From Flavobacteriales bacterium (GTDB lineage: Bacteria; Bacteroidota; Bacteroidia; Flavobacteriales_F; PHOS-HE28), in NCBI GenBank assembly GCA_016713875.1, contig JADJOI010000003.1, positions 437,092-501,091 of the forward strand: a DNA stretch of 64,000 nt. Direction: 5' to 3'. Under the pieces are notes generated by a model. It made no database searches. It had not been told where the DNA came from and worked only from the letters and a program-made list of their open reading frames with translations. Both the position numbers and the translations under genes were made by a program. Positions within the stretch are counted from its first letter, which is position 1; each line of letters begins with the position of its first letter. Below are positions 51,119-51,148 of this stretch, one piece after another.

Positions 51119-51148
51119 CACACACACACACACACACACACACACACA
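51119..51148. repeat. (CA)15 dinucleotide microsatellite
   Basis: Perfect cacaca... run of 30 nt in the intergenic region between the MFS gene and the T9SS repeat-protein gene. Confidence 0.95.

Follow-up and report, generated by a model that had tools for sequence, protein, structure and literature searches.

A (CA)15 microsatellite between an MFS transporter gene and a T9SS cargo gene of a wastewater Flavobacteriales bacterium: probable expansion in place within the relic of a lost gene

A long and perfect CA run upstream of a gene for a secreted protein raises the question of whether the run is a phase-variation switch of that gene or a neutral repeat. Such a run is found in the window—the whole 64-kb stretch of DNA that was analysed here—of an uncultured high-GC Flavobacteriales species, whose nearest other species in the genome collection are MAGs with an MFS identity of at most 87%. 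An earlier note on this DNA had described the run as a site of slipped-strand mispairing that alters the spacing of a promoter. For an SSR upstream of a surface-protein gene, three properties should be checked before it is called a phase-variation switch: geometry, ancestry, and the integrity of the target.

Sequence and position of the tract

The tract is a perfect (CA)15 dinucleotide microsatellite, (TG)15 on the opposite strand, and is embedded in the window as ...GCACGTTCCTGC(CA)15CCGGCCATGCGC.... TRF stretches it by one C to 51149, which yields 15.5 copies with a 100% match. A first-order Markov model of the window gives an expected number of such runs of ~7e-13 per window. The tract is the sole dinucleotide run of more than four units in the 64 kb, with (CG)4 and (GC)4 as runners-up. 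In related genomes (366,951 bases, 43 loci), dinucleotide runs reach 6 units at most, as (CG)6, and those of the CA/TG type reach 5 units. As a perfect tandem repeat of a 1–6 bp unit, (CA)15 stands well above compositional expectation: it is a genuine, strong outlier, and the rarity that the earlier note had ascribed to this 30-nt run is borne out.

The position given before is correct as well, apart from 1 bp: the tract lies in the gap between the MFS gene and the gene for a T9SS repeat protein (the cargo gene), and this gap measures 589 bp instead of 590 bp. The tract begins 194 bp past the MFS stop and ends 366 bp before the ATG of the cargo gene at 51515 on the plus strand. The features of the locus are compiled in Table 1.

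Table 1. Features of the locus around the CA tract (positions in the window)
Feature	Position	Strand	Basis or remark
MFS transporter gene	49699..50925	+	Pfam MFS_1, E 5.6e-46
Non-coding gap, 589 bp	50926..51514	.	GC3, Rfam, tRNA, promoter/terminator and fold scans
Relic of the 3' end (~last 50 codons) of an L017-type gene	51001..51175	-	tblastn and nucleotide alignment
CA microsatellite	51119..51148	.	sequence, TRF, chance expectation, allele lengths
Dispersed repeat, ~110 nt, with imperfect hairpin 51295-51359	51290..51425	.	second copy ~61330-61480
Near-match to the -7 box TAnnTTTG, AACATTTG	51505..51512	+	motif scan
T9SS cargo gene	51515..53419	+	translation, Por_Secre_tail/TIGR04183, orthologues
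C7 homopolymer in signal-peptide codons, 30 nt into the cargo ORF	51545..51551	+	C8 in L063 (low coverage)

Coding and RNA potential of the gap

ORFs in the gap feature a GC3 of 0.63–0.67 compared with 0.78–0.90 in genes, the MFS gene being at 0.90. Rfam contains no family that matches the whole window at the gathering threshold or 50850–51600 at E ≤ 1, and ARAGORN calls no tRNA or tmRNA. The predicted RNA fold of 51150–51530, corresponding to a 381-nt leader, is no more stable than that of shuffled sequences (z -0.37). In 50700–51700, neither a sigma-70-type promoter nor an intrinsic terminator was detected, and a search for local inverted or direct repeats that could flank the tract as operator sites gave nothing convincing. 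Together with the relic described below, the GC3, RNA, and promoter/terminator scans characterize this DNA as being without coding or known regulatory function, insofar as sequence, which cannot prove absence of function, allows such a statement.

Translational phase variation would require a reading frame through the tract that is shifted by slippage in 2-bp steps. In the 15-unit allele, two such ORFs are present: one of 587 aa (51098–52861), which crosses the tract in frame with the cargo gene, and one of 80 aa on the minus strand (50998–51240). In addition, gene callers place the start of a 568-aa product 6 nt past the tract, at the ATG at 51155. These ORFs were rejected as genes. The GC3 is 0.63 for 51155–51514 and 0.67 for the minus-strand ORF, values that fall short of those of the real genes, and the ORFs through the tract have no Pfam matches. 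In the long ORF, the signal peptide would begin deep inside the product, at residue 140, and hence places the true start at 51515 or 51530. Starting past the tract, the product from the ATG at 51155 is independent of tract length, and the commonest allele (17 units, see below) breaks both frames through the tract. Both of these frames, that of 587 aa and that of 80 aa on the minus strand, are high-GC artefacts, and the 568-aa product is spurious. As judged by GC3, the signal peptide at 51515, and the lack of a family match, the repeat is located outside the translated 5' part of any real CDS, and a translational switch has next to no chance of being the right explanation.

Promoter elements around the tract

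The Bacteroidota promoter was scanned for as TTG at -33 and TAnnTTTG at -7, separated by a spacer of 17–23 bp. None of these elements occurs in the tract and no pair flanks it; the scan gave two boxes with 5 of the 6 specified bases, both distant from the tract. The sole near-match upstream of the cargo gene is AACATTTG, which agrees with the -7 box at five of the six specified bases, lacks a TTG at -33, and is found ~355 bp downstream of the tract, adjoining the start codon of the cargo gene. This negative result is meaningful because exact TAnnTTTG boxes occur 18–48 nt upstream of other genes of the window, e.g., at 14573 (minus strand), 25420 (minus strand), and 31081 (plus strand). The nearest TTG to the left of the tract (in CCTTTGG, 51097–51100) would be ~50 bp away from any element to its right.

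These distances bear directly on promoter-spacer phase variation in the style of the (TA)9–11 repeats of hifA/hifB, in which the length of the tract would set the -33/-7 spacing as the earlier note had proposed. The general hif analogy (PMC2651432) and the length variation speak for it. The geometry contradicts it: the tract, at 30–34 bp, exceeds the whole 17–23 bp spacer, no TTG or TAnnTTTG lies in or beside it, and it is positioned in relic DNA. Unlike the promoter-spacer contingency repeats of hif, porA, opc, and fetA, the repeat does not separate a pair of promoter hexamers of either type (-35/-10 or -33/-7), the claim of altered -33/-7 spacing falls, and the probability left to this kind of switch is minimal. 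The earlier note had also named two observations that would speak against its own proposal: a promoter downstream of the tract and an invariant repeat length. The former is approached by AACATTTG, a promoter candidate by motif, and the latter stands against lengths that differ between assemblies, in part possibly for technical reasons.

The downstream cargo gene

The product of the cargo gene consists of a signal peptide starting from the ATG at 51515 or 51530 (MNYCFMRSSRPPLLAFLLLASAMPAHA), three internal repeats of ~130 aa each, and a C-terminal sorting domain. That this gene is interrupted had been noticed before and is confirmed: an in-frame TGA occupies 52859–52861, and the T9SS type A sorting domain resumes beyond it in the same frame (Por_Secre_tail, E 2.7e-9; TIGR04183; 52892–53419). 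Intact orthologues (510–641 aa; P0002 with 641 aa and 61% identity, P0003, and P0004) carry a Trp at the position of the TGA. The TGA is seen in every assembly of the species, including the divergent contig L063, and both halves stay open. The cargo gene is thereby divided into a body of 448 aa and a piece of 175 aa that carries the sorting domain. The 448-aa product would, hence, lack the sorting domain unless read-through occurs; the TGA is either a recent nonsense mutation or a site of read-through. An intact surface or secreted target gene for the tract is, thus, not present in any of these assemblies.

The upstream regions of the orthologues P0002 and P0004 (L065–L068, L070) contain no dinucleotide run of at least 5 units and show no similarity to the window; P0003 (L069) starts at a contig end and is outside this comparison. 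Conserved sequence that could locate a promoter was not found upstream of the cargo orthologues. The repeat is not linked to the gene or its promoter in orthologous loci, and the related MFS loci are also without the tract.

A second simple repeat of the locus is the C7 run in the signal-peptide codons. In L063, a contig with 3.7x coverage, this run is C8 and would shift the frame of the cargo gene—a single observation at low coverage. By its position, the C7 run would be better suited to SSR switching than the CA tract is.

A gene relic beside the MFS gene

In a sister species (locus L017), the MFS gene is 87% identical and adjoined by a gene for a 527-aa protein, which lies on the minus strand (L017 1455–3038) and hence is convergent with the MFS gene. 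A GNAT gene comes after it, as in the window. The 527-aa protein has its homologues among T9SS cargo proteins of type A or type B; in the L017 protein itself, no domain is called by Pfam or NCBIfam. The minus strand of the window encodes at 51004–51126 the peptide CVWQERAITKGRPVHPRVPDGSYVAVALGLPDNLRRRFIVQ, which shares 23 of its 41 residues (56%) with the 41 C-terminal residues of the L017 protein (tblastn, E 9e-13 locally). This match keeps an E of 9e-7 when searched against all loci and the window. Both sequences occupy the same position in the same orientation beside the MFS orthologue. As read from these alignments, the tract is situated in what is left of a lost gene, a truncated relic comprising its last ~50 codons.

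The nucleotide alignment with L017 resolves the site of the tract itself. To its left, the 9 bases CGTTCCTGC are identical in the window and L017. To its right, 14 of 17 bases are identical and ~18 of 26 up to ~51175, with no similarity beyond. Between the same flanks, L017 carries CATACGCA in place of (CA)n, and its minus-strand codons TGC GTA TGG encode Cys-Val-Trp. The orthologous site is, thus, non-repetitive in a relative, namely in the single sister genome L017.

Further relatives were searched for comparable tracts. None of the related loci has a CA/TG-type run of at least 5 units near its MFS gene; a (TG)5 of L048 is ~2.6 kb away. A scan of the genome collection found related species (at most 87%) and no genome of the same species, with the tract in none of them. 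A search for closer relatives of the L017 gene, which could have featured intermediate repeat lengths, gave homologues of at most 41% identity.

Tract length among assemblies of the same species

With the MFS gene as an anchor, the locus was recovered from other assemblies. Wastewater and activated-sludge metagenomes yielded 23 contigs that encode the identical MFS protein, which the 2.9-Mb contig of the MAG GCA_963853025.1 encodes as well, and the same-species contigs are 99.9–100% identical to the window. The window carries 15 units and GCA_963853025.1 carries 16 units, whereas ERZ28613422, ERZ965206, ERZ965218, ERZ965212, and ERZ27280359 carry 17 units each. The contig L063 from ERZ1764624 (98.6% identical, 3.7x coverage) features the allele (CA)13CGCACCCA, i.e., 13 pure plus 4 impure units; this impure allele depends on the low-coverage contig. 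The tract length hence differs (15, 16, 17, and 13 + 4) while the flanks are 98.6–100% identical. Compared with the window over 7.2 and 5.7 kb, L004 and L006 differ by 4 extra bases in the tract and one T (T4/T5) and by nothing else. A scan of JGI metagenomes with a pattern spanning the tract gave 0 matches, and a scan with the MFS protein gave relatives of at most 83% identity and no further alleles.

Every Logan k=31 contig stops or starts inside the tract. In a simulation at k=31, tracts of at least 16 units lead to duplicated, looping 31-mers, and tracts of 15 units or fewer lead to none; it follows that 16 or more units, or a mixture, are present in the Logan samples. The end points of these contigs (14, 14.5, and 15 units) were considered as a sign of minor short alleles, a reading that was rejected because it over-interprets assembler behaviour. 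The tract is, in practice, a reproducible breakpoint of k=31 assemblies, and gene callers start the spurious product at 51155 just beyond it.

The main rival explanation concerns these facts and not function: the true allele could be (CA)17 everywhere, with 15, 16, and the impure allele as consensus or low-coverage errors and the tract effectively stable. Assembly technology confounds the comparison. The clean short-read assemblies, five in number, all give 17 (three of the five, ERZ9652xx, come from one project), the counts of 15 (window) and 16 (2.9-Mb contig) possibly stem from long-read consensus, and no Logan sample can have 15 units or fewer. Moreover, at 53735–53738 the window has T4 where all four of the spanning same-species contigs that were compared (L001, L002, L004, and L006) have T5. 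This T4 frameshifts a GNAT acetyltransferase gene (251 aa elsewhere, start at 53526) and is probably a consensus error of the window's assembly. Since the window differs by a homopolymer base and the short-read assemblies agree on 17, the counts of 15 and 16 could be consensus errors, too. The two assemblies in question, however, are not rich in errors—over 21 kb, the window shows one other indel and GCA_963853025.1 zero—and the MEGAHIT k141 contig L012 starts 4 nt after the tract, as is the case at heterogeneous sites. In addition, a (CA)n of this length reportedly slips in E. coli at ~1e-4 per generation (Levinson and Gutman 1987). A purely technical origin of the differences is, on balance, unlikely, and the length polymorphism between assemblies is likely biologically real, as judged by the alignments of near-identical flanks. 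The slipped-strand site of the earlier note is, thus, retained as far as differing lengths in near-identical flanks are concerned, within a comparison confounded by assembly technology.

Proposed history of the tract

The following history would account for these observations. In the ancestor, the MFS gene would have faced a convergent gene for a secreted, T9SS-cargo-like protein, an arrangement that L017 retains. In the lineage of the window, the bulk of this convergent gene would have been lost or replaced, with ~50 terminal codons left as a relic. The sequence CATACGCA, on the plus strand a proto-repeat of 4 units, could have become (CA)4 by two transitions, and replication slippage could then have grown (CA)4 to 13–17 units. 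Placed 194 bp past the MFS stop and 366 bp before a cargo gene interrupted by a nonsense codon, the tract would be unconstrained, and its length would drift by slipped-strand mispairing. This drift would surface as length differences between assemblies and as broken short-k assemblies. We infer the order of these events and the biological nature of all length differences from the comparisons above, and neutrality from the context of the tract.

Hence, the tract is probably a young, lineage-specific microsatellite, which expanded in place in non-functional DNA, is unstable, and probably is neutral. Three points run counter to this reading. First, 15–17 perfect units are very unusual in a free-living bacterium, and a purity over 30–34 bp could reflect selection or, alternatively, a very recent expansion. 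Second, the gene downstream of the tract encodes a secreted or surface protein, which corresponds to the classic setting of a contingency locus. Third, the scan detected no intrinsic terminator between the MFS and cargo genes; transcription could hence run through the tract, and the tract could have an effect in RNA or from a distance.

The practical value of the tract is modest: it is a natural strain marker for this wastewater Flavobacteriales species. More instructive is that the state before the putative expansion (CATACGCA and the intact gene in L017) and the state after it (13–17 CA units and the relic) are both visible, which provides a clean example of the birth of a bacterial microsatellite in decaying DNA.

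Comparison with known repeat systems

The VNTR loci of Mycobacterium leprae lie for the most part in non-coding or decayed DNA and are not known to be regulatory. In this species, whose genome consists to about half of pseudogenes and intergenic DNA, polymorphic (AC)n loci serve as VNTR typing markers (PMC12035532). The tract resembles loci such as AC8a, AC8b, AC9, and GTA9: short-unit perfect repeats in a GC-rich bacterium, whose copy number differs between near-identical genomes and which are used as strain markers (PMC12035532). M. leprae differs by having many such loci in a massively decayed genome, whereas here a single tract occurs in 64 kb of a gene-dense, free-living wastewater bacterium. 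The tract is also longer, with 15–17 units compared with 8–9 units in M. leprae, and its ancestral non-repeat state is visible in the sister species.

The same repeat unit at comparable length was present in the poly-CA/TG tracts in E. coli/M13, in which Levinson and Gutman reportedly found in 1987 frequent gains and losses of 2 bp, and more of them in mismatch-repair mutants. This mutational behaviour is the one proposed here; those tracts were engineered in a reporter, whereas the present one is natural and chromosomal.

In Haemophilus influenzae, the (TA)9–11 repeat of hifA/hifB forms the spacer between -35 and -10, 104–225 bp upstream of hifA, and changes its length by slipped-strand mispairing (PMC2651432). 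The CA tract is likewise a dinucleotide repeat upstream of a gene for a surface structure. Unlike the hif repeat, it exceeds any spacer, has no adjacent promoter elements, is 366 bp away from the start codon, and lies in a relic. The (TAAA)n repeat of Neisseria meningitidis nadA is located outside the core promoter and changes the distance from regulator operators to RNA polymerase contacts (PMC2791445). Of the known kinds of mechanism, this one alone could still be allowed by the geometry of the CA tract. The nadA tract, at ~-55 to -85, has mapped NadR and IHF sites on its flanks, whereas no regulator sites or nearby promoter were detected around the CA tract, which is not conserved with its downstream gene.

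Action at a distance would, in analogy to nadA, consist of the tract altering the spacing or helical phasing between a regulator or UP-like element and a promoter, or of altering supercoiling via Z-DNA, and would thereby tune the expression of the cargo gene. Length differences between assemblies and the position of the tract upstream of a secreted-protein gene in the same orientation are in line with this, and distal SSRs can modulate promoters, as exemplified by nadA TAAA (PMC2791445) and by the hmw 5' UTR repeats (PMC12721329). Furthermore, alternating purine–pyrimidine runs favour Z-DNA (PMC4060949). However, 366 bp and the dispersed repeat separate the tract from the start codon, the nearest -7-like box is the one at 51505, and no -33/-7 or sigma-70 elements are within reach. 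The nadA tract at ~-55 to -85 from the start site (PMC2791445) is much nearer than the CA tract would be if the 51505 box were the promoter. Furthermore, the tract arose, as reconstructed above, in a gene relic, is absent upstream of the orthologues, and would act on a target gene with a nonsense codon at a conserved Trp in all assemblies. Regulation from a distance is, therefore, improbable, and regulatory readings of the tract are poorly supported in general.

A more specific proposal is that the tract is a contingency repeat of an environmental, non-pathogenic high-GC Flavobacteriales: the number of units, perhaps together with C7/C8, would stochastically tune the transcription of the T9SS cargo gene from a distance via regulator phasing, Z-DNA, or an RNA effect. 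We give this proposal little credence. Bacteroidota typically use invertible promoters for phase variation. If true, a T9SS cargo protein under SSR-driven phase variation would be an unusual case in this phylum, and such a contingency repeat could help to evade phage or grazers in activated sludge.

The tract is without the tested defining features of promoter-spacer or intragenic contingency loci. It is of a known kind—a bacterial microsatellite in non-coding relic DNA—and is unusual as a CA run of 30–34 bp in a free-living bacterium.

Dispersed repeat, variable island, and further observations

The 68-nt repeat element that had been pointed out in the gap is real and part of a longer dispersed repeat, which stands between the tract and the cargo gene. 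Its core at 51319–51385 matches a second copy at ~61359–61427 with 84% identity over 69 nt, and the similarity reaches ~110 nt with one indel. A weak third match is found at 63417–63445. The motif GGACCTCGAACCCGCC of the 68-nt repeat was considered as a tRNA fragment and rejected, as ARAGORN finds no tRNA or tmRNA and Rfam has no match either. Further short repeated GC-rich motifs occur at 60780–61230, e.g., CGCCTTYGCGTAGCCGCTTCGGCGGAGCAAGGCC twice.

The gene content between the MFS gene and LemA/DUF2207 varies among relatives. In L019 (82%), LemA and DUF2207 come directly after the MFS gene, and the stretch 50926–54344 is, judged by this gene order, a variable island. L017 features a different cargo gene on the opposite strand plus GNAT at this place, and the window features the relic, the interrupted cargo gene, and GNAT. 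The GC3 of the cargo gene (0.78) is lower than that of its neighbours (0.87–0.90).

The contig L063 (ERZ1764624 NODE_16204) was aligned with window 50931–53754. Over ~51017–53436, which comprises the relic, the tract, and the cargo gene, the two sequences are nearly identical, and the flanks diverge sharply: 21 mismatches occur to the left of 51016, and 9 mismatches plus a different gene content occur on the right. Since the flanks diverge in this way, the relic–tract–cargo module may sit in a different context in L063 or may have been exchanged by recombination.

Two observations lie apart from the locus. At 44263–44287, the window differs from L001, L002, and L003 by seven substitutions in 25 nt against a background of 99.9% identity; this is a small recombination or hypervariable patch and not an inversion. 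The longest homopolymer of the window is a G9 run at 19241–19249 (C9 on the minus strand). An SLT-domain transglycosylase gene on the minus strand has its ATG 4 nt downstream of this run, which lies where the preceding gene ends.
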